Source: Saprospiraceae bacterium
GTDB lineage: Bacteria > Bacteroidota > Bacteroidia > Chitinophagales > Saprospiraceae
DNA: 64,000 nucleotides
Direction: 5' to 3'
Assembly: GCA_035299505.1 (NCBI GenBank)
Contig: DATGWL010000042.1
Location: 791 to 64,790 of the forward strand
Below are positions 5,257 through 29,674 of this stretch, in pieces; within the stretch, counting starts at the first letter, position 1, and each line of letters begins with the position of its first letter. The notes under the pieces were generated by a model, which was not told the DNA's origin, ran no database searches, and saw nothing but the letters and a program-made list of their open reading frames with translations. The translations under genes and the position numbers were made by a program.

Positions 5257-6339
5257 CTATCGCACAAACAATTGCTTTAGCTGATCTACCAGTTGGCCGC
5301 CTCCGGAGAGTTGGATGGTTTGGATCTTTTCGGCAATTTTTTCCACGTATTCCATTTCCTTGAGCTTCATCAACATGGCGTTTTCTTCCATGAGCTTGGC
5401 GGTGTTCATGAGGCTTCGGGTGGAAGCGGTTTCTTCCCGACGCATGATCACGTTGGCCTGGGCGCGTTTTTCCGCAATCAGAACCTGGTTCATGATTTCT
5501 TTCACGTCGCCGGGAAGCACAATGTCTTTCACCCCGAAATCTACTAATTCAACGCCCAGTTCGCGGGCTTTTTCGGCGGCATTGGCCAGCACCTGTTGGG
5601 CAATCTGGTCTTTGCTCTCCATCAGTTCGTCGAAGCTCAGTTTACCCACAATTTCGCGCAAGGCCATCTGCATCTGGGTGTACAGCTGCTTATCGAAGTC
5701 CTTGTTTTCCACCAGGGCTTTCATGATGTCGGTCACGCGGTATTGCGCGGTGGCATTGATACGCAACTGGGCTTTATCACGGGTCAGTACTTCCTGACCG
5801 AGGATATCTACCGTCATCTGGCGCATATCGGTTTTCACGCTGGATACCTGGTCCTGGTTTTTCCAGAAATAGTAGCTGCCCGGTTCCAGGGCGCGCACTA
5901 CGGCGCCGTTGATGAGCAGGATACCTTTTTCGAAAGCAGCAATCTGCACCACCCGCAGGTAGCTGGCCAGGTTGTTCTTCGAGATCAGGTTCAGGTCGAT
6001 GTTCACCTCCTCGGTGCGGGTGATGTCGGCCTTCACCACATGGTAAGCAGTAACTCCTTTCCAGAAAGCAAACTTGCCTGCAGTGAGTACCTGATGGAAC
6101 AAACCATCGCGGTACAGCAACGCAATTTCATGATCGGCTACTTCAAATACCTGAAGCAAGGATGCCAGTTCTGCATTTTGCAGCAGTACGTTCAGCTCCT
6201 GTGGGGGCAAAAATGCCTCCGACATGTTGTATAATTCCGCTTTTTCGCCTGGCCACACCCATTGGAAGCCATCGTGCAAAATGCGGGTCAGTTTTTCACG
6301 CTTGAATACCAGCGCGATGTGGTTGGTTGGAATAAGCAT
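5257..6339 (-). CDS. SPFH/band-7 (slipin/HflC-like) domain protein
   Basis: Track ORF 5257..6405, trimmed to ATG 6339 because the upstream codons translate the GAGTGTTT repeat. SPFH-like core followed by a coiled-coil tail (VELVDFGVKDIVLPGDVKE...AEKRAQANVIMRREE). Confidence 0.8.
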   Translation of the reverse strand: MLIPTNHIALVFKREKLTRILHDGFQWVWPGEKAELYNMSEAFLPPQELNVLLQNAELASLLQVFEVADHEIALLYRDGLFHQVLTAGKFAFWKGVTAYHVVKADITRTEEVNIDLNLISKNNLASYLRVVQIAAFEKGILLINGAVVRALEPGSYYFWKNQDQVSSVKTDMRQMTVDILGQEVLTRDKAQLRINATAQYRVTDIMKALVENKDFDKQLYTQMQMALREIVGKLSFDELMESKDQIAQQVLANAAEKARELGVELVDFGVKDIVLPGDVKEIMNQVLIAEKRAQANVIMRREETASTRSLMNTAKLMEENAMLMKLKEMEYVEKIAEKIQTIQLSGGGQLVDQLKQLFVR

Positions 6340-6342
6340 GGT

Positions 6343-6400
6343 TGAGTGTTTGAGTTTTTGAGTGTGCGAGTGTTTGAGTTGGCGTTCGGTTTGGCGTTTG
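6343..6400. repeat. Half-copy (G/T arm) of the GAGTGTTT word-repeat element
   Basis: gagtgtttgagtttttgagtgtgcgagtgtttgagttggcgttcgg. It shares the junction gagttggcgttcgg with the copies at 9928-9990 and 15349-15410. Confidence 0.8.
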
Positions 6401-6403
6401 TCC

Positions 6404-6482
6404 AAACCTCATAGGTTTTTAAAACCAATGAGGTTTAGGAACCGTCGTAATCATATCGTTCATCGTTCATCGTCCATCGTTC
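6404..6482. repeat. 9-bp hairpin followed by a (ATCGTTC)x4 heptamer tandem repeat
   Basis: aaacctcat (6404-6412) pairs with atgaggttt (6428-6436). atcgttc atcgttc atcgtcc atcgttc occupies 6455-6482, immediately next to the A7/U7 tract at 6483-6489. Confidence 0.8.
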
Positions 6483-7000
6483 AAAAAAACCTATGCGTCA
6501 GCGCTTCACGGCTTTCCTACGGAGGTAACCGTGGCTTGCAACAGGGCATTCGGGATAGGGCATGGATCAGGGCCGGGCGTTTGGGAACAAGTTCCGTGGG
6601 CCCTGTCTGAGCAATACTTTTTCCGCTTCATGCTGTGCTGAAAGCGATGGATACCTGCAGAGTCGGCTAACCGTTGTTGCGGCATTATGCAACGGAAGCG
6701 CTGCGCACAGATTGGTTGGGCATTTGAAAAGCGCCCTACTTTGGAGAATTGGATCCACAGTCCAGTGCATATCCATTATGCTACCGCTCACGCGGGCAGG
6801 ATTCGAACCTGCATAAAGGGTACTGCTCTAACCACTGAGCTACTTCCGAAGAAGGCGGGAATCGAACCCGCGACCGGTACATCAAAGGCCAATCAATTGT
6901 TCTGCATATGGATTCCCTACCGGGTCCATACATCGGCGCCATCAGAAACGCCCGACCAGGGAACAACCGCCGGCTTTATCATAGATAATCATCTTTGCTA
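6483..7000 (-). ncRNA. Structured non-coding RNA candidate with embedded tRNA-like modules (YrlA/Y-RNA-like tRNA mimic or a novel class), 3' of rtcB-1 on the same strand
   Basis: Only short overlapping ORFs lie here and none has a recognisable family. The minus strand shows two canonical T-arms, one D-arm, and UUCG and CUUG tetraloop hairpins. A 12-bp long-range helix (6946-6957 with 6571-6582) is also present, and a U7 tract at 6483-6489 marks a plausible 3' end. The 5' boundary is uncertain and may extend to the rtcB stop at 7103. Confidence 0.55.
6796..6871 (-). ncRNA. Tandem tRNA-like module lacking an anticodon arm and a local acceptor stem
   Basis: Minus strand reads GCGGG-UUCGAUU-CCCGC (6855-6871), then CUUC-UUCG-GAAG (6843-6854), then UAGCUCAGUGGUUAGAGCA (6824-6842, D-stem GCUC/GAGC with G18G19). 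An 11-nt linker follows, then GCAGG-UUCGAAU-CCUGC (6796-6812). Confidence 0.65.
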
Positions 7001-7102
7001 CCAATATTTCCGCCCCGCTGGGGCTGGAGGTCTGAGGGAATTTGAAGAGCAACGCCCTCCCTCTCCCCTCATGTAATCATGTACTCTTCAATCATGTACT
7101 CC

Positions 7103-8521
7103 CTAGTCTTCGCGGCTGCCATCGTCGGCCATACGCACCATTTTGGGGGTGAATTGGGCTACGATGTCTACGAGGTTCGACTGGGCGGCCATGACCTGAT
7201 GGATGTCTTTGTAGGCCATCGGGGCTTCATCACGACCGCCACCGATAAGGCTTACGCCGAGGTCTTGCAGGATCTGGCTCATCTGTTGCTTGCTCACATT
7301 TTTGATGGCCTGGGTACGACTCATTTGTCGGCCGGCGCCGTGGGAGGCTGAGTGCAGGGCGGAGCTTTCTCCTTTACCGCGCACCAGGAATCCCGGAGCA
7401 GTCATGGAGCCCGGAATGATGCCCATGACACCTTTTCCGGCCGGTGTGGCGCCTTTTCGGTGCACAATCACTTCTTCGCCGTTGAGGGTTTCTTTCCAGG
7501 CAAAGTTGTGGTGGTTTTCTACCCGGGCCAGCACCGTTCCACCAATGGCTTTGGTAAGTTTTTGGTGGATCACTTCGTGACAGGCTGAGGCATAATCGCC
7601 GGCCAGGTTCATGGCCATCCAGTATTCCTGCCCGGCCTCGGTATTGAGGTCGAGATAGGCCAGATTGGCAGCATGCGGTGGCAATTTGCACAAATCCTTG
7701 GCCAATCGGGTGTAATACCCGGCCACCGTAGCGCCAAATCCGCGGGAACCGGAGTGCGTCAGCAAGGCCAGGTATCGGCCTTTTTGAATGCCCAGGGGTT
7801 CGTCGTTTTCCGCGAACTCGATGATGCCCCATTCCACAAAGTGGTTTCCACCGCCGGAGGAGCCCAGTTGGGTATAGGCTTTATCTTTCAGCGACTGGAT
7901 GAACGGGGTCATTCCGAACTCCGGCCGGTCGAGAATATCGTGTTGGGCGCGGTAAGTGCCCTGGAAACCGTTGCCGGCGCCAAAGGCGGTATGGGCAATG
8001 AGTTCGCGTTTATAGAAGGACTTGTTTTCGAAAAAATGGTCCTCCGGAATATCGAAAACCGACAAAGCCATTCGGCAACCAATGTCTACACCTACGCCGT
8101 AAGGAATCACGGCATTGCGTGTGGCCAGCACTCCGCCTATCGGCAGCCCGTAACCCTGATGCGCATCCGGCATCAGGGCCCCGGCCATCGTTACCGGGAG
8201 TTGCATGGCTATGTTCATTTGTTTCAAGGCGCCTTCTTCAATGCCGTCTTTTCCGTAAACGGCGTATTCGTCGGCGGTTTCTTTCAGTTCGATGGTGGCT
8301 TTAGCAGCCTCTATGGCGGCTTCCTCCAGAATCAGCGTGGCAAAATCTTCCAACGCAGGATCGTCGAGGTATAATTCCGGGTTTTTGCGGACTTTATGGA
8401 GCAGGGTAAGGGTATCCTGTTTTTTATTTTCAGCAAAAATGCCATTCGCCAGTTGAAGCGCAGCACCCAGAATTTTTCCTTCAGAGAATCCCAGAAACAG
8501 GAGGTCTTTTCCTTTTATCAT
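7103..8521 (-). CDS. rtcB: RNA-splicing/repair ligase RtcB, copy 1, with an N-terminal extension of about 70 aa
   Basis: 472 aa. RtcB motifs: ALMPDAHQGYGLPIGGV, GGGNHFVEWG, THSGSRGFG, ENHHNFAW, VHRKGATPA, SASHGAGRQMSR. Confidence 0.95.
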   Translation of the reverse strand: MIKGKDLLFLGFSEGKILGAALQLANGIFAENKKQDTLTLLHKVRKNPELYLDDPALEDFATLILEEAAIEAAKATIELKETADEYAVYGKDGIEEGALKQMNIAMQLPVTMAGALMPDAHQGYGLPIGGVLATRNAVIPYGVGVDIGCRMALSVFDIPEDHFFENKSFYKRELIAHTAFGAGNGFQGTYRAQHDILDRPEFGMTPFIQSLKDKAYTQLGSSGGGNHFVEWGIIEFAENDEPLGIQKGRYLALLTHSGSRGFGATVAGYYTRLAKDLCKLPPHAANLAYLDLNTEAGQEYWMAMNLAGDYASACHEVIHQKLTKAIGGTVLARVENHHNFAWKETLNGEEVIVHRKGATPAGKGVMGIIPGSMTAPGFLVRGKGESSALHSASHGAGRQMSRTQAIKNVSKQQMSQILQDLGVSLIGGGRDEAPMAYKDIHQVMAAQSNLVDIVAQFTPKMVRMADDGSRED

Positions 8522-8733
8522 GACTTGTAATGTTTTGTTGTATTGGATGATGCAAAGGTGAATGTGCCACTGCGCAATATATTTGCGTAGTAAAATTTTG
8601 AATAAAAATTCTTTTACGTTTTTGATTTAAATATTTGATTATCAATATTTTATTCGTAAATATTTTTTTTGAAAAATATTGACTGATTTGCTATTGCGCA
8701 AATAGATTGCGTACTTGTTTTGGAACGTTGTTA
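8522..8733. promoter_or_regulatory. AT-rich divergent promoter region between rtcB-1 and the WYL regulator, with four TTGCG(C/T)A-type boxes
   Basis: Imperfect inverted repeat GCGCAA-N5-TTGCGT at 8572-8588. Perfect 8-bp palindrome TTGCGCAA at 8694-8701. ATTGCGTA at 8706-8713. The surrounding sequence is strongly AT-rich, unlike the rest of the window. Confidence 0.45.
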
Positions 8734-8913
8734 TTTCGCACAGATTTTACACAGATTAGGGGCACAGATTTTACAACCCCCAACCCCCAAGAGGGCTTGC
8801 CAACTCAAACACTCAAAAACTCCCACACTCATCATCTGCCCAGATTTTTGGGCTACCCAACTCAACGCCAACTCGAAAACTCAAACACTCGAAAACTCAA
8901 ACACTCGAAAAAC
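8734..8913. repeat. Composite inverted repeat, left copy (CACAGATTTTA words plus C/A-rich AAACACTC words), 5' of the WYL gene
   Basis: 8734-8775 is the exact reverse complement of 10009-10050 (42/42). 8797-8913 carries ccaactcaaacactcaaaaactc...aaactcaaacactcgaaaaac, which mirrors the GAGTGTTT array at 9928-9985. Confidence 0.9.
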
Positions 8914-9927
8914 GTGGCTCTCAACAAACTCGCCCTTATCCGCTATAAAACCATTGATACCTGCCTGCGCAACCGGGCCAGGAAATGGACCCTCGAAAAC
9001 CTGATTGATAAGGTTTCGGAGGTGCTGTATGAATACGAAGGTATACGGGATGGTGTGAGTAAGCGCACCATACAACTGGATTTGCAAACCATGCGAAGCG
9101 AGAAGTTGTATAATGCTCCTATTGTTGTAACCGACCGAAAATATTACACCTACTCCGATCCAAAATTCAGCATCACGCAATCCAAACTAACGCCCTCAGA
9201 CCTTGAGAAAATGAACGAGGTGGTGGGCATATTGAAACACCTCAACGGATTCAATCACTTCGGAGAAATGAGTGAAATGATTGCCCGACTGGAAAATGAC
9301 CTGCAGCGGGCCAAACCGGAGGGACGCAATGTGATACAGTTTGAATCCAACCCCCTGTTGCGTGGCCTGAACTGGATTGACCCACTTTATCGGGCTACGG
9401 CTGCGCGCACCACCTTGCAGATTGAATACCAGTCGTTCCGTTCCAGAGAGGTAAAACCCGGTATTTATTATCCATACCTGCTCAAGGAATTCCGCAACCG
9501 CTGGTTTATAATCGTGCGCAATAAATACAAAAAACAACTCCTCACCCTGGCGCTGGACCGAATAGAAGGGGTGCAGGAACTGCCGCACGAACCATTTTAC
9601 GACTATCCGGAGGTAGACTTCGACCATTACTTCGACAATGCCATTGGCGTTACCAAATCCGAGCACGACAAACCCACTCGGGTGGTGCTGGAGGTGAGTC
9701 CGAAAATGAAACCTTACGTACTTACCAAACCCCTGCACCCCACACAGGAAGTATTGAAGGAAGAAGAAGGCCGCATCATTATTCAGATTTTCGTGGTACT
9801 CAATTTTGAACTACAGCGCGAGATTCTTGGATTTGGTTCCGGAATGAAAGTACTTAGCCCCCGGATTTTAGTCAAATGGATCAAAGAAGATTTGGAAAAG
9901 ACGATTGCCGGGTATACGAGTGTTTGA
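8914..9927 (+). CDS. HTH-WYL-WCX family transcriptional regulator (YafY/PafBC/BrxR-like)
   Basis: Track ORF 8707..9927 starts at a TTG and its first 69 codons translate repeats. I propose the in-frame GTG at 8914 (ALNKLALIRYKTIDTCLRNRARKWTLENLI, a typical N-terminal HTH for Bacteroidota WYL regulators). WYL-like core: YYPYLLKEFRNRWFIIVRNKYKKQLLTLALDRI. C-terminal WCX-like segment: VVLEVSPKMKPYVLTKPLHPTQE. The start codon is uncertain. Confidence 0.78.
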   Translation: MALNKLALIRYKTIDTCLRNRARKWTLENLIDKVSEVLYEYEGIRDGVSKRTIQLDLQTMRSEKLYNAPIVVTDRKYYTYSDPKFSITQSKLTPSDLEKMNEVVGILKHLNGFNHFGEMSEMIARLENDLQRAKPEGRNVIQFESNPLLRGLNWIDPLYRATAARTTLQIEYQSFRSREVKPGIYYPYLLKEFRNRWFIIVRNKYKKQLLTLALDRIEGVQELPHEPFYDYPEVDFDHYFDNAIGVTKSEHDKPTRVVLEVSPKMKPYVLTKPLHPTQEVLKEEEGRIIIQIFVVLNFELQREILGFGSGMKVLSPRILVKWIKEDLEKTIAGYTSV

Positions 9928-28278: not shown

Positions 28279-29496
28279 TCAGTCTTCCCGGCTGCCATCA
28301 TCTGCCATGCGCACCATTTTGGGCGAGAAACGGGCGATAACATCCACCAGATCGCGTTGGGCATCCATTACGGCGTGGATATTTTTATAGGCCATTGGTG
28401 CTTCGTCGAGGCCGCCGCCGATGAGGCTAACGCCTACCTGTTGCAGTATTTCCTGCAGTTCTTTTTTATGGATATTTTTAATGGCCTGGGTGCGACTCAT
28501 TTGTCGGCCGGCGCCGTGGGAGGCAGAGTGCAGGGAGGAGGCCTCGCCCCGGCCGCGCACCAGAAAGCCTGGGGCGGTCATAGAGCCCGGAATAATGCCC
28601 ATCACGCCTTTCCCGGCAGGAGTGGCGCCTTTGCGGTGCACGATCAGTTCCTCCCCGTTCAGTATTTCTTTCCAGGCAAAATTGTGGTGGTTTTCCACCC
28701 GGGTCAGCACCGTTCCGCCAATGGCTTTGGTCAGTTTCCGGTGTATCACATCGTGGCAGGCAGATGCATAGTCGCCAGCCAGGTTCATGGCCATCCAGTA
28801 TTCCTGACCGGCCTCAGTGTCCAGGTCCAGATAAGCCAGATTGGCGGCAAAGGAAGGCAGTGGACAGTGTGTTTTGGCCAGTTTGGTGTAATGCCCGGCG
28901 ATAGTGGCGCCCAGACCGCGGGAGCCGGAATGCGTGAGCAGGGCCAGATATCGACCCTTTTCAACGCCCAAAACAGGGTCAGATTCCGGAAAATCAATAA
29001 TGCCCCATTCCACAAAATGATTGCCGCCGCCGGAGGAGCCCAGTTGTTCAAAAGCTTTGTCTTTGAGTCCGCGCAAAAGTTTGTTCATGCCAAACTCCTT
29101 TCGGTCCAGCACCTGATGATACGCCCGGTCCTTGCCGGAGAATCCTTTACCAGCGCCAAATGTGGTGTGCGACATGAGTTCGCGTTTGTACAACGAACGT
29201 CGTTCCAGAAAATGGTCCTCCGGAATATCATACACGGTGAGCGCCATCCGGCAACCAATATCCACCCCAACGCCATATGGAATTACCGCATTGCGCGTGG
29301 CCAGTACCCCGCCAATGGGCAATCCGTAACCTTGGTGCGCATCAGGCATGAGCGCACCGGCCACCGTTACCGGCAATTGCATGGCAGTGTTCATTTGGTT
29401 AAGCGCGCCTTCTTCAATGCCGTCTTTACCAAAAATGGCGTATTCCAGCGCGCTTTCCCGTAGAGAAACAGGTGCAGGATTTGAATCTGATTTCAT
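28279..29496 (-). CDS. rtcB: RNA ligase RtcB, copy 2 (short N-terminus)
   Basis: Track ORF 28279..29565, trimmed to ATG 29496 (MKSDSNPAPVSL...). It has the same RtcB motif set as copy 1 (ALMPDAHQGYGLPIGGV, GGGNHFVEWG, HSGSRGLG, NHHNFAW, HGAGRQMSR). By eye it is about 80 percent identical to copy 1 over the shared region, with the identical C-terminus KMVRMADDGSRED. Confidence 0.93.
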   Translation of the reverse strand: MKSDSNPAPVSLRESALEYAIFGKDGIEEGALNQMNTAMQLPVTVAGALMPDAHQGYGLPIGGVLATRNAVIPYGVGVDIGCRMALTVYDIPEDHFLERRSLYKRELMSHTTFGAGKGFSGKDRAYHQVLDRKEFGMNKLLRGLKDKAFEQLGSSGGGNHFVEWGIIDFPESDPVLGVEKGRYLALLTHSGSRGLGATIAGHYTKLAKTHCPLPSFAANLAYLDLDTEAGQEYWMAMNLAGDYASACHDVIHRKLTKAIGGTVLTRVENHHNFAWKEILNGEELIVHRKGATPAGKGVMGIIPGSMTAPGFLVRGRGEASSLHSASHGAGRQMSRTQAIKNIHKKELQEILQQVGVSLIGGGLDEAPMAYKNIHAVMDAQRDLVDVIARFSPKMVRMADDGSRED

Positions 29497-29674
29497 AAAT
29501 GGATTTGTCCTTAACCTGAAAAAGTAACGTAAAGTTCCAGCCCGGAAAGAAGAAAGCGCTGGCAAATGAAACCTGTAATATACGGGCTCATCCGCCGAAA
29601 CATACCACTCATCCTATTCTATTTGCCCAGCCAGTTTGCCCGCCTGCACCTTTCAGGTTCAAATTAACGACTTT

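Follow-up and report, generated by a model that had tools for sequence, protein, structure and literature searches.

A conserved double tRNA-like RNA between rtcB and an SPFH gene in Saprospiraceae, and its relation to b7a-tRNA and YrlA RNAs

RtcB OPERONS AND THEIR tRNA-LIKE RNAs

RtcB repair operons are widespread, and little is understood of their accessory factors. YrlA RNAs, which Ro60/Rsr binds, are stable and act in trans (PMC4201824). In Salmonella, the rtc operon is regulated by tRNA fragments, and YrlA might competitively inhibit an anticodon nuclease, as suggested in the same study (PMC7790460). In Anabaena without TrcR, slipin, rtcB, and a tRNA operon are derepressed together (PMC10272220). 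A further tRNA-like RNA, b7a-tRNA, was predicted by Burroughs and Aravind in 2016 (Nucleic Acids Res 44:8525) as the cognate RNA of an RtcB-adjacent Band-7 protein; their work is taken here from its description in bioRxiv 10.1101/312249. According to that description, b7a-tRNA "strongly resembles an authentic tRNA," and b7a-tRNA with its Band-7 protein interchanges with Rsr/YrlA, an observation attributed to the same authors. As far as this secondary source goes, b7a-tRNA is so far a bioinformatic prediction only, without a detailed model, experimental validation, or an Rfam entry.

The locus described here lies in a window of 64 kb, the whole stretch of Saprospiraceae DNA that was analyzed, for which an earlier note had proposed a structured RNA between rtcB and an SPFH gene. 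The best explanation, held with moderate confidence and dependent on the secondary description of b7a-tRNA, is that this gap encodes a trans-acting structured RNA which belongs to the b7a-tRNA class as its Bacteroidota form and is related by evolution to the YrlA Y RNAs. The earlier idea of an undescribed module has to be given up, since the pairing of a Band-7 protein with a tRNA-like RNA was predicted in 2016 by comparative genomics, as the same secondary source reports. Added to that prediction now are a covariation-supported secondary-structure model, a highly specific covariance model for detecting the RNA, and a clear-cut genetic pattern in which either SPFH with a two-module RNA or TROVE with a single-module RNA takes the same operon slot.

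GENE CONTEXT AND DETECTION OF THE RNA

The RNA core and the genes around it are as follows.

5257 to 6339, minus strand: SPFH/Band-7 ("slipin") gene (Pfam Band_7, 8e-34), downstream neighbor of the RNA
6712 to 6965, minus strand: broadly conserved RNA core of ~255 nt, with P1, P2, a variable region, modules 1 and 2, the pseudoknot, and ACCA
7103 to 8521, minus strand: RtcB RNA ligase gene (Pfam RtcB, 4.7e-81), on the same strand as the RNA and upstream of it
8707 to 9927, plus strand: WYL-WCX transcription regulator gene (Pfam WYL and WCX), divergent

The SPFH gene starts 373 nt 3' of the RNA core on the same strand. The WYL regulator stands divergently at the operon head in most related loci of the census, which bears out the proposal that it belongs to one conserved module with the RNA. 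No database record was returned for the RtcB of the window by an exact-protein look-up. A tblastn search with three TROVE proteins found no TROVE/Ro60 gene in the 64 kb (best E value, 0.81); the earlier remark that no Ro/TROVE gene is visible nearby thus holds for the whole window. ARAGORN called no tRNA or tmRNA in the window.

The core is matched over its full length in the window, with 200.9 bits, by an nhmmer profile and the covariance model R1. Both also match a full-length core in 30 loci selected by RtcB; the core lies on the rtcB strand each time, as do all 74 matches of R1 in the loci. The motif GGTTCRANTCC, expected 0.34 times by chance in 64 kb, occurs twice, both times in the RNA region, on the same strand and 59 nt apart. 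The RNA region folds with a z-score of -3.3. The R1 matches, the covariation described below, and this z-score confirm a structured noncoding RNA on the rtcB strand. Of the ~0.5 kb first assigned to it, only ~255 nt are conserved throughout the Bacteroidota; some 230 nt more, reaching to a U7 tract, show conservation in the two closest relatives (L083 and L086) alone.

STRUCTURE OF THE CONSERVED CORE

Judged from the sequence comparisons, the conserved core of ~255 nt is an array of two tandem, circularly permuted tRNA-like modules, with the P1 hairpin before them and a pseudoknot followed by ACCA after them. Its elements are given in 5' to 3' order of the RNA; percentages are the share of paired cells in the alignment.

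6933 to 6955, minus strand: P1 hairpin UCGG[G]CG / CGCCGA with a one-nucleotide bulge and a conserved loop (consensus GUUUCnnnAUAGC), a candidate protein-binding site
6907 to 6930, minus strand: P2 hairpin UAUGGA...UCCAUA with inner CCC/GGG (outer part, 86.5%; double changes in 3 of 6 pairs)
6820 to 6880, minus strand: module 1, a permuted YrlA-type tRNA mimic without an anticodon loop, matching RF02553
6877 to 6880 and 6820 to 6823, minus strand: GUAC/GUAC closing helix of module 1, anticodon-stem-like (97%)
6855 to 6871, minus strand: T-arm of module 1 (100%), preceded by the variable-loop-like CGGUC
6843 to 6854, minus strand: capped acceptor-like hairpin (UUCG) of module 1 (93.5%)
6825 to 6840, minus strand: D-arm of module 1 (96.4%), preceded by U8-A9
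6750 to 6812, minus strand: module 2, another permuted tRNA mimic, which is open at its variable loop, matching RF02553
6796 to 6812, minus strand: T-arm of module 2 (98%)
6784 to 6795, minus strand: acceptor-like hairpin CCGC-GUGA-GCGG of module 2 (81%)
6767 to 6781, minus strand: D-arm of module 2 (75%)
6750 to 6764, minus strand: anticodon-like arm UGGA-CUGUGGA-UCCA of module 2 (89.5%; double changes in 5 of 5 pairs)
6718 to 6742, minus strand: H-type pseudoknot, with S1 as AAAG/CUUU (6728 to 6742) and S2 between the loop GGGC and GCCC (6718 to 6721)
6712 to 6717, minus strand: AACCAA immediately 3' of the pseudoknot; ACCA or AUCA is frequent here in homologue alignments

Covariation was examined in an alignment of 21 sequences that was not fitted to the structure. 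In this alignment, 88.7% of the cells pair, compared to 39 to 47% in slid controls, and compensatory (double) changes are found in 48 of the 60 pairs; the observed values were reached in 0 of 500 shuffles. Covariation among related Bacteroidota rtcB loci, which the earlier note had named as a check, is extensive in this alignment. RNAalifold independently finds P1, P2, the closing helix, T1, AS1, D1, T2, the anticodon-like arm, and PK-S2. Conservation of the core extends over several Bacteroidota families, with compensatory changes that include the non-tRNA parts P1, P2, and the pseudoknot.

P1 is paired in 95.2% of the cells, shows double changes in 4 of 6 pairs, and is also present in the Firmicutes homologue (L082). 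In module 1, the Levitt pair 15-48 covaries, being G:C in 16 sequences and A:U in 3, and the Levitt pair of module 2 covaries as well. The T-loop and D-loop consensus in each module, combined with the covarying Levitt pair, indicates that each should fold into a tRNA-like elbow. The 7-nt loop of the anticodon-like arm keeps the pattern Y-U-NNN-R-A, with "anticodon" bases that differ among species (GUG in the window and GUU in the near relatives L083 and L086). For the pseudoknot, S2 is paired in 78% of the cells with double changes in 4 of 4 pairs; loop-tail complementarity amounts to 4.53 in matched and 3.21 in mismatched pairs, and the observed value was reached in 0 of 2,000 permutations. 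The adjoining AACCAA may be a tail resembling the 3' end of a tRNA or a processing site.

The P2 hairpin, both T-arms, the CUUC-UUCG-GAAG hairpin (6843 to 6854), the D-arm of module 1, a hairpin GGAA-CUUG-UUCC (6584 to 6595), and the U7 tract (6483 to 6489) were all found where the earlier note had placed them. Its list lacked the acceptor-like hairpin, the D-arm, and the anticodon-like arm of module 2 as well as the pseudoknot. The statement that the RNA has no anticodon arm is consequently limited to module 1, as module 2 contains such an arm. The UUCG hairpin is the acceptor-stem equivalent of module 1, and module 2 has an acceptor-like hairpin of its own.

LINKAGE TO SPFH AND INTERCHANGE WITH TROVE

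The conserved partner of the RNA is the SPFH/Band-7 gene directly downstream and not, as first supposed, rtcB. Among the 30 RtcB-selected loci with a full-length RNA, the SPFH gene follows directly in 29, the exception being a contig end, and every SPFH gene in this set has the RNA upstream. A protein-independent test used metagenome loci chosen by a two-T-loop DNA pattern; seven of these match R1 strongly, and SPFH lies downstream in all five that have downstream sequence. The location of the RNA relative to rtcB varies among the loci, and its location upstream of SPFH is constant. A related RNA is found upstream of SPFH in Firmicutes (L082). Some of the WYL-controlled RtcB operons carrying the RNA also contain RlaP.

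The RNA occurs with SPFH and without TROVE in 28 of 29 loci, and Ro60/TROVE together with single-module YrlA-like RNAs usually takes this operon slot in the sister loci. The TROVE loci show single-module matches without SPFH and without the two-module RNA, apart from L078, in which two-module RNA, SPFH, and TROVE stand in one operon, and L057, with a TROVE fragment, where full-length RNA matches are weak only. Some sister operons are accompanied by arrays of canonical tRNA genes. No SPFH homologue was found in phage records, and viral contigs with the two-T-loop pattern contain tightly packed tRNA arrays; none of the 120 loci kept has SPFH or a full-length RNA.

The SPFH linkage and the interchange with TROVE/YrlA mark the RNA as the probable Bacteroidota form of b7a-tRNA, in so far as the latter is known through its secondary description. 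Like b7a-tRNA, the RNA is tRNA-like, adjoins a Band-7/SPFH gene (in the window as well as in the loci of both selections), lies in an RtcB RNA-repair neighborhood with a divergent WYL gene, and swaps with Rsr and YrlA, with L078 as a mixed locus. Compared with the "authentic tRNA" wording of that description, T- and D-arms, an anticodon-like arm, and Levitt pairs are present, but the arms are permuted, ARAGORN is negative, and the Rfam tRNA match is chimeric. The RNA further differs from what is described for b7a-tRNA as a composite of ~255 nt with two permuted modules, P1, P2, and a pseudoknot. A cloverleaf-type form that looks like authentic tRNA does exist: in L099, a high-GC metagenome contig, two fused cloverleaves lie upstream of a distant SPFH homologue. 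These two fused cloverleaf tRNAs suggest that the RNA family probably arose from tandem tRNAs.

THE 3' DOMAIN AND A POSSIBLE CIS-ACTING LEADER

Beyond the core, the RNA continues into one further domain.

6483 to 6710, minus strand: lineage-specific 3' domain, one long irregular hairpin with a basal helix (6695 to 6710 with 6490 to 6507), ending in U7 (6483 to 6489)

Sequence similarity in this domain is restricted to L083 and L086, and conservation ends right after U7. RNAalifold gives 78 pairs for it, only 3 of them with double changes. The hairpin and U7 probably act as a terminator at which the primary transcript ends. A simple scan, the scope of which does not cover Bacteroidota promoters or a hairpin loop this large, called no promoter or terminator and left the U7 site unflagged. 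The corresponding region of Pedobacter yields no convincing consensus structure.

Two long-range pairings had been proposed to join the core to this domain. The 12-bp helix of 6946 to 6957 with 6571 to 6582 exists as a complementarity in the window (p = 0.06) and remains as 9 to 11 bp in L086, but it is not conserved: when the best complement of the P1 segment was sought in the 3' region of each homologue (n = 30), 27 of the 30 were at chance level. The helix also excludes the P1 hairpin, which covaries strongly, and was rejected in favor of the better-supported local helices. The second pairing, AUGGAUA-UGCA, would use D-arm 2, itself conserved, and likewise yields to the local helices. The helices that define the "390-nt domain" of the earlier note therefore find no support.

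The same region bears on an unlikely alternative, in which SPFH expression is controlled in cis by the structured segment, either as the 5' untranslated region of the SPFH mRNA or as an rtcB-SPFH intercistronic element. The modules would then sense uncharged or damaged tRNA or tRNA-binding proteins, with the hairpin and U7 as an attenuator. The invariable position of the RNA upstream of SPFH, on the same strand and 210 to 550 nt away, is consistent with such a leader, as is the long hairpin that, with U7 after it, separates the core from the start of SPFH. The 12 nt by which the 5' strand of P1 complements the 3' domain, with a remnant in L086, could be an alternative pairing. Against a leader stand the chance level of this complementarity in nearly all homologues and the segment between core and SPFH, which between genera is not conserved in sequence, length, or detectable structure. 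In L083, an insertion of ~330 nt parts the RNA from SPFH and leaves both intact. The related YrlA RNAs, moreover, are stable and act in trans, as mentioned above.

SPFH PROTEIN AND PROPOSED FUNCTION

The SPFH protein has 360 residues and no transmembrane segment. Its predicted model shows two N-terminal β repeats, the SPFH domain, and a long helix, and it resembles the cage-forming stomatin, HflK/C, and major vault protein; solved homologues form rings or cages of 16 to 26 subunits. Major vault protein gives the longest structural alignments to the model, although with low TM-scores (0.40 to 0.46), and the β repeats, SPFH "shoulder," and long helix predicted for the bacterial protein recall its architecture. 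The vault particle combines major vault protein, the TROVE protein TEP1, and vault RNA, and the bacterial operons swap SPFH and TROVE, each with a small structured RNA. In contrast to the ~850 residues of major vault protein, however, the SPFH protein has only 360, and its cage and RNA binding are putative. The comparison is an analogy, possibly with distant homology of the SPFH domain only.

The RNA, which probably acts in trans, is Ro-independent as far as the window and the related loci show, as the earlier note had guessed: TROVE is absent from the 64-kb window and from all but one of the 29 SPFH loci. Gene linkage makes it likely that the RNA is the partner of the soluble, probably cage-forming SPFH protein in WYL-controlled RtcB repair. 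The SPFH protein would bind the RNA, with P1 as the best candidate site, and the resulting ribonucleoprotein would serve RtcB repair as Ro60-Y RNA is proposed to do. The tRNA-shaped modules could be handles, by which tRNA-recognizing enzymes (RtcB, nucleotidyltransferases, and those of modification and processing) or damaged tRNA are recruited or positioned, or else decoys for tRNA-cutting toxins. The primary transcript would probably end at U7, with a length of ~480 to 545 nt, and may be trimmed to the core at ACCA. In its most specific form, this model remains tentative: an uncharacterized ribonucleoprotein in which a soluble, vault-like SPFH cage binds the double tRNA mimic via P1 and replaces Ro60-Y RNA as the RtcB cofactor, with the fast-evolving anticodon-like loop and the ACCA-tailed pseudoknot as bait for tRNA-directed toxins or enzymes, and with the composite of two permuted modules, bulged hairpin, and pseudoknot as the hallmark of a new RNA family absent from Rfam. 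RNA binding by a soluble SPFH ring, a role of tRNA mimics in RNA repair, and the equivalence of SPFH-RNA and Ro-Y RNA all become testable.

A pure decoy or sensor function is rated as quite improbable. Here, anticodon nucleases would cut the modules, especially the anticodon-like arm of module 2, and the RNA would either soak up the toxin or yield fragments that activate WYL and through it RtcB. The loop of module 2 does keep the tRNA pattern, with differences in the three bases at its center even among close relatives; the regulator at the operon head carries a ligand-binding WYL domain, and a parallel exists in the tRNA halves that activate RtcR in Salmonella; the canonical tRNA gene arrays of some sister operons also fit. 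This scheme is purely inferential, leaves the strict SPFH linkage, the conserved P1, and the pseudoknot unexplained, and has to accommodate a module 1 without any anticodon loop. It is compatible with the SPFH-bound ribonucleoprotein and need not replace it.

COMPARISON WITH YrlA, tRNA, AND OTHER RNA FAMILIES

Rfam searches at gathering and permissive thresholds gave partial YrlA, tRNA, and tmRNA matches only and no ROOL, GOLLD, RNase P, or other large RNA. The relationship to YrlA-type tRNA mimics that the earlier note had proposed is borne out. Among the Rfam families, the YrlA model (RF02553; Chen et al. 2014, PMC4201824) fits both modules best, module 1 at model positions 23 to 85 (36.6 bits; E value, 3.4e-6) and module 2 at positions 30 to 81 (26.5 bits). 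The modules share with YrlA the order of T-arm, capped acceptor-like stem, and D-arm, less complete in module 2, as well as the T-loop/D-loop consensus, the covarying Levitt pair, and the location on the RtcB strand of an RNA-repair operon. The T, AS, and D stem-loops with a covarying Levitt pair that characterize YrlA occur twice in this one RNA. Neither module, however, reaches the gathering score of 69 bits, and the basal Ro-binding stem (model positions 1 to 22 and 86 to 114) is unmatched. The TROVE-adjacent RNAs of Bacteroidota also fall below 69 bits, which makes the gathering score a weak criterion in this phylum. The present RNA differs from YrlA in its two modules, P1, anticodon-like arm, and pseudoknot and in having SPFH as the partner gene.

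An ordinary Ro-dependent Y RNA, with Ro60/Rsr encoded elsewhere in the genome, is very improbable on these data. YrlA as the best Rfam model and the L078 operon with its TROVE gene would suit it; the missing Ro-binding stem, the low scores, and the prevalence of SPFH without TROVE would not. The rsr gene that accompanies YrlA within 4 kb on the same strand is absent from the 64-kb window, and the Rsr-site motif GNCGAAN0-1G has no match on the RNA strand of 6478 to 7102.

With 30.5 bits, the Rfam tRNA model (RF00005) formally passes its gathering score of 29, through a chimeric match that runs from D-arm 1 into T-arm 2 and skips the anticodon arm; unlike a tRNA, the match has neither anticodon arm nor acceptor stem and forms no complete cloverleaf. 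This formal pass and the fused cloverleaves of L099 could be read as pointing to functionless, decaying remnants of tandem tRNA genes or att-site duplications, a reading that the earlier note had itself raised and that is refuted by covariation and synteny and left with a negligible probability, as the architecture is kept with compensatory changes across several Bacteroidota families, non-tRNA parts included, in a fixed strand and gene context with a negative ARAGORN result. For tmRNA (RF00023), the 18-nt T-arm alone matches (18.9 bits versus a gathering score of 47), and a tag reading frame is missing; in sequence, the T-arm equals the consensus of tmRNA and tRNA. In circularly permuted tRNA genes, the arm order is permuted likewise, whereas loops cap the acceptor-like stems here. 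TYMV has a tRNA-like structure with a pseudoknotted acceptor arm. By analogy, the pseudoknot and ACCA of the present RNA may be seen as topologically similar to such an arm. The RNA family could join Rfam, which at present misses it or scores it wrongly as a weak tRNA.

One small hairpin lies 5' of the core.

7012 to 7024, minus strand: hairpin GCCCC-AGC-GGGGC (P0), upstream of P1

A hairpin with a variable stem sequence 20 to 30 nt upstream of P1 is found in many homologues and is common rather than universal. The one in the window may serve as a 5' element of the RNA or belong to a repeat unit, and repeats of the upstream hairpin unit occur in L083 and L086.

Sequence signals between rtcB and the SPFH gene

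The gap on the minus strand between the rtcB stop (7103) and the start of the SPFH/Band-7 gene (6339) contains all of the RNA-like elements listed in the earlier note, each at the coordinates given there. The T-loop consensus GGTTCRANTCC occurs twice in the 64-kb window, against a chance expectation of 0.34; both copies lie in this gap, 59 nt apart on one strand. Compared with shuffled versions, the segment has a more stable fold (z = -3.3). ARAGORN finds no tRNA and no tmRNA over the whole window, and the sole Rfam match at the gathering score, "tRNA" with 30.5 bits, fuses D-arm 1 and T-arm 2 and lacks the anticodon arm. A permissive Rfam scan yields two partial tandem matches to YrlA (RF02553), the bacterial Y RNA of Ro60/Rsr.

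Partial YrlA matches
6821-6879, 36.6 bits, RF02553 model positions 23-85
6767-6813, 26.5 bits, RF02553 model positions 30-81

Architecture of the conserved core

Given these tandem matches, the element is read as two permuted tRNA-like modules, each running from a T-arm through a capped acceptor-like hairpin to a D-arm, which replaces the order of T-arm, hairpin, D-arm, and T-arm proposed earlier. The order of the parts is derived from alignment with homologues and pair counting.

Parts of the RNA core, 5' to 3' (homologue alignment and pair counts)
6933-6955 (-), P1, a bulged hairpin with a conserved loop
6907-6930 (-), P2
(-), variable stretch between P2 and module 1
6877-6880 with 6820-6823 (-), anticodon-stem-like helix closing module 1
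6796-6812 (-), T-arm of module 2
6784-6795 (-), hairpin of module 2
6767-6781 (-), D-arm of module 2
6750-6764 (-), anticodon-like arm of module 2 with a 7-nt loop
6718-6742 (-), H-type pseudoknot, followed by ACCA

Comparison of homologues establishes a real RNA with a defined structure, conservation, and strand. Pairs were counted in a plain MAFFT alignment of 21 sequences, unfitted to any structure. Standard pairs form in 88.7% of cells for the core structure, compared with 39-47% when the 3' partners are slid, and 48 of 60 pairs show changes on both sides; none of 500 shuffles matches the observed pairing values. RNAalifold without a supplied structure recovers P1, P2, the closing helix, the T-arm, acceptor-like hairpin, and D-arm of module 1, the T-arm of module 2, the anticodon-like arm, and the second pseudoknot stem. 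The loop-to-tail complementarity of the pseudoknot is sequence-specific (4.53 for matched versus 3.21 for mismatched pairs), a value reached in 0 of 2,000 permutations. Both modules show covariation of the tertiary Levitt pair 15-48, a feature also reported for YrlA (PMC4201824).

The 12-bp long-range helix of the earlier note (6946-6957 with 6571-6582) is unsupported: the best complement of this P1-strand segment in the 3' region lies at the level of shuffled sequence in 27 of 30 homologues, and the same test within the window gives p = 0.06. Segment 6946-6957 takes up the 5' strand of P1, and 6571-6582 can instead pair locally (CAGGGCC/GGCCCUG) as part of a long hairpin. Retention of the helix as 9-11 bp in the two closest relatives, through A-to-G changes, argues weakly for it. 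The second long-range pairing proposed there gives way to D-arm 2, which it occupies.

Extent and flanks of the RNA

Across Bacteroidota, only ∼255 nt (6712-6965) are conserved. The next ∼230 nt on the 3' side are conserved only in L083 and L086, two loci whose SPFH proteins show 97% and 91% identity to that of the window, and conservation with these loci collapses directly 3' of the U7 tract. The 3' domain folds as one long hairpin with its basal helix abutting U7, so that the primary transcript may plausibly end at this tract, as had been suggested. In Pedobacter, an unrelated 3' region of similar length has a U-rich tract at its end.

Many homologues, though not all, have a hairpin upstream of P1. 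The window carries GCCCC-AGC-GGGGC (7012-7024, minus strand), which together with ATATTGGTAGC forms a unit of ∼27 nt, with one copy in the window, two in L083, and three in L086 (L086:1090-1180); in other genera, a different hairpin lies 20-30 nt upstream of P1. These hairpins may act as promoter modules, belong to REP-like repeats, or form a 5' stem of the RNA. The RNA is bordered by short tandem repeats, with 3.9 copies of TCATGTAA just past the rtcB stop (7069-7098), 4.1 copies of ATCGTTC directly after the U7 tract (6455-6483), and 4.8 copies of TTGAGTGT in the CA-rich SPFH leader (6342-6379); units and copy numbers differ in L083 and L086. The closest relative, L083, contains an insertion of ∼330 nt between the RNA and SPFH (L083:3600-3990), edged by duplicated copies of the hairpin AAACCUCAUAGGUUUUUAAAACCUAUGAGGUUU, of which the window has one copy (6404-6436). 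The insertion resembles a small mobile element or a duplicated target site.

Operon context in Bacteroidota

Context was examined in 80 Bacteroidota loci that encode relatives of the window's RtcB. R1, the covariance model of the core, yields 74 matches, all on the rtcB strand, and matches at full length with >90 bits in 30 loci plus the window. Pedobacter has the RNA upstream of rtcB; in the window, L052, L045, L038, and L025, it lies downstream. An SPFH/Band-7 gene follows next on the same strand in 29 of the 30 full-length loci; the lone exception, L017, stops at the edge of its contig. The RNA precedes every SPFH gene in the set. Since the position relative to rtcB varies in this way, rtcB, the partner assumed in the earlier note, is the wrong one. 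As an independent check, a DNA pattern of two T-loops 53-73 nt apart was scanned over metagenome contigs without protein information, giving strong R1 matches in seven loci, with SPFH downstream in all five that have downstream sequence.

Ro60/TROVE is encoded in 13 of the 80 loci. These show single-module YrlA-like matches between TROVE and rtcB and lack SPFH and the two-module RNA, with the exceptions of L078, which has both cassettes, and L057, which has a TROVE fragment and only weak full-length R1 matches. The two-module RNA is linked to SPFH and alternates with TROVE and single-module RNAs. The operons are mostly headed by a divergent WYL-WCX regulator, replaced by an AAA protein in some. 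Two RlaP nucleotidyltransferases are also encoded in many of them.

At its gathering score of 69 bits, the YrlA model of Rfam misses all of the YrlA-like RNAs next to TROVE that R1 finds in Bacteroidota (L004, L013, L063, and L076), and the current Rfam family therefore under-covers this phylum.

Wider distribution

SPFH homologues with 33-41% identity are found in Firmicutes and Proteobacteria. The gene order in Subdoligranulum is RNA, SPFH, RtcB, and RlaP, with an RNA in which P1 and a T-arm are retained (27 bits with R1). In E. coli, a T-arm-containing segment precedes a slipin gene, followed by a nucleotidyltransferase gene. On L099, a high-GC metagenome contig, a 40%-identical SPFH gene is preceded by a fused pair of cloverleaf tRNAs that look canonical. 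The RNA family is thus a broad one, heterogeneous in structure and probably originating from tandem tRNAs.

The slipin-nucleotidyltransferase pair lies between rluF/DUF3811 and lysC in some E. coli, such as STEC639 (CP061233.1, L081:5650-5950). The segment before slipin is unannotated, with a perfect T-arm, UGGGUUCGAUUCCCA, and a hairpin after it, and may be a diverged enterobacterial counterpart of the RNA.

The SPFH protein and the proposed role

Residues 131-342 of the SPFH protein form a stomatin-like core, and a scan for a hydrophobic segment long enough for a transmembrane anchor finds none. The protein's AlphaFold model (pLDDT of 77) combines two beta-sheet repeats at the N terminus with the SPFH domain and a long helix. 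Structurally it comes closest to stomatin, HflK/C, prohibitin, and erlin, all of which form rings or cages, and the longest Foldseek alignments are to the major vault protein, with low TM-scores of 0.40-0.46. The vault contains a TROVE protein and a small RNA alongside the major vault protein, which parallels the alternation of SPFH and TROVE in RtcB operons. The SPFH protein would oligomerize and bind the RNA.

The best-supported reading, by analogy with what is proposed for Y RNA and Ro60, is that the RNA acts in trans and would partner the SPFH protein during RtcB repair under WYL control. Its tRNA-shaped modules would serve as handles or decoys, with P1 as the likely protein site. SPFH would bind the RNA, presumably in an oligomeric state, and the RNA might be processed at ACCA and take part in repair. 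The competing readings are that the RNA is a leader or attenuator acting in cis on SPFH, that it serves as a nuclease decoy or as a sensor feeding the WYL regulator, and that it is a Ro-dependent Y RNA whose rsr is encoded elsewhere. An origin as tRNA debris is refuted by covariation and synteny.

Relation to described RNAs

Burroughs and Aravind, in the abstract of their 2016 study, reportedly propose that Rot/TROVE and SPFH/Band-7 modules serve as scaffolding cofactors and have cognate non-coding RNAs. In the discussion of a preprint citing that study (bioRxiv 10.1101/312249), b7a-tRNA, the predicted Band-7-associated tRNA-like RNA, and YrlA are stated to swap protein partners occasionally, and b7a-tRNA is described as lacking experimental validation. 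Removal of the repressor TrcR in Anabaena derepresses a slipin gene together with rtcB and a 26-gene tRNA operon (PMC10272220), and PaFlo8 of P. aeruginosa is an SPFH gene within the rtc locus (PMC13086221). The RNA-SPFH-RtcB association is therefore already known. An SPFH-associated tRNA-like RNA having been predicted in 2016, the earlier note is wrong in suggesting an undescribed module; its observation is largely right, and its reading as a Ro-independent relative of YrlA is right in spirit. The detailed composite architecture is absent from Rfam 15 and from the literature searched, where the 2016 prediction is known via the citing preprint. The RNA is a structural variant, new in detail, of the kind predicted, and its interest lies in giving a so far unvalidated class a testable model.

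Other genes of the window and related loci

A second RtcB paralogue (28279-29565, minus strand; Pfam RtcB, 6.5e-82) has the unrelated neighbors cupin, cytochrome c, and DUF4345, with no SPFH, WYL, or R1 match nearby. A Flavo-1 RNA (RF01705, 50 bits) at L006:17512-17581 (minus strand), ∼9 kb from the Pedobacter operon, is probably unrelated.

Canonical tRNA gene arrays (4-12 genes) lie on the operon strand inside or adjoining RtcB/SPFH operons in a subset of related loci (L078:1044-2276, L149:4714-6121, L145:1312-3791, L026:17287-17783, L025:12337-13104, L019:11604-12070, L017:8997-9727, L061:7210-7842, L139:2974-3739, and L151:877-1210); ARAGORN finds no canonical tRNA gene in the 64-kb window. 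Recurring members are Pro-tgg, Phe-gaa, His-gtg, Gln-ttg, Lys-ttt, Asp-gtc, Arg-acg, Tyr-gta, Asn-gtt, Ser, Ile, Met, and Leu, many of them isoacceptors that anticodon nucleases target. The arrays resemble the TrcR-controlled tRNA operon of Anabaena.
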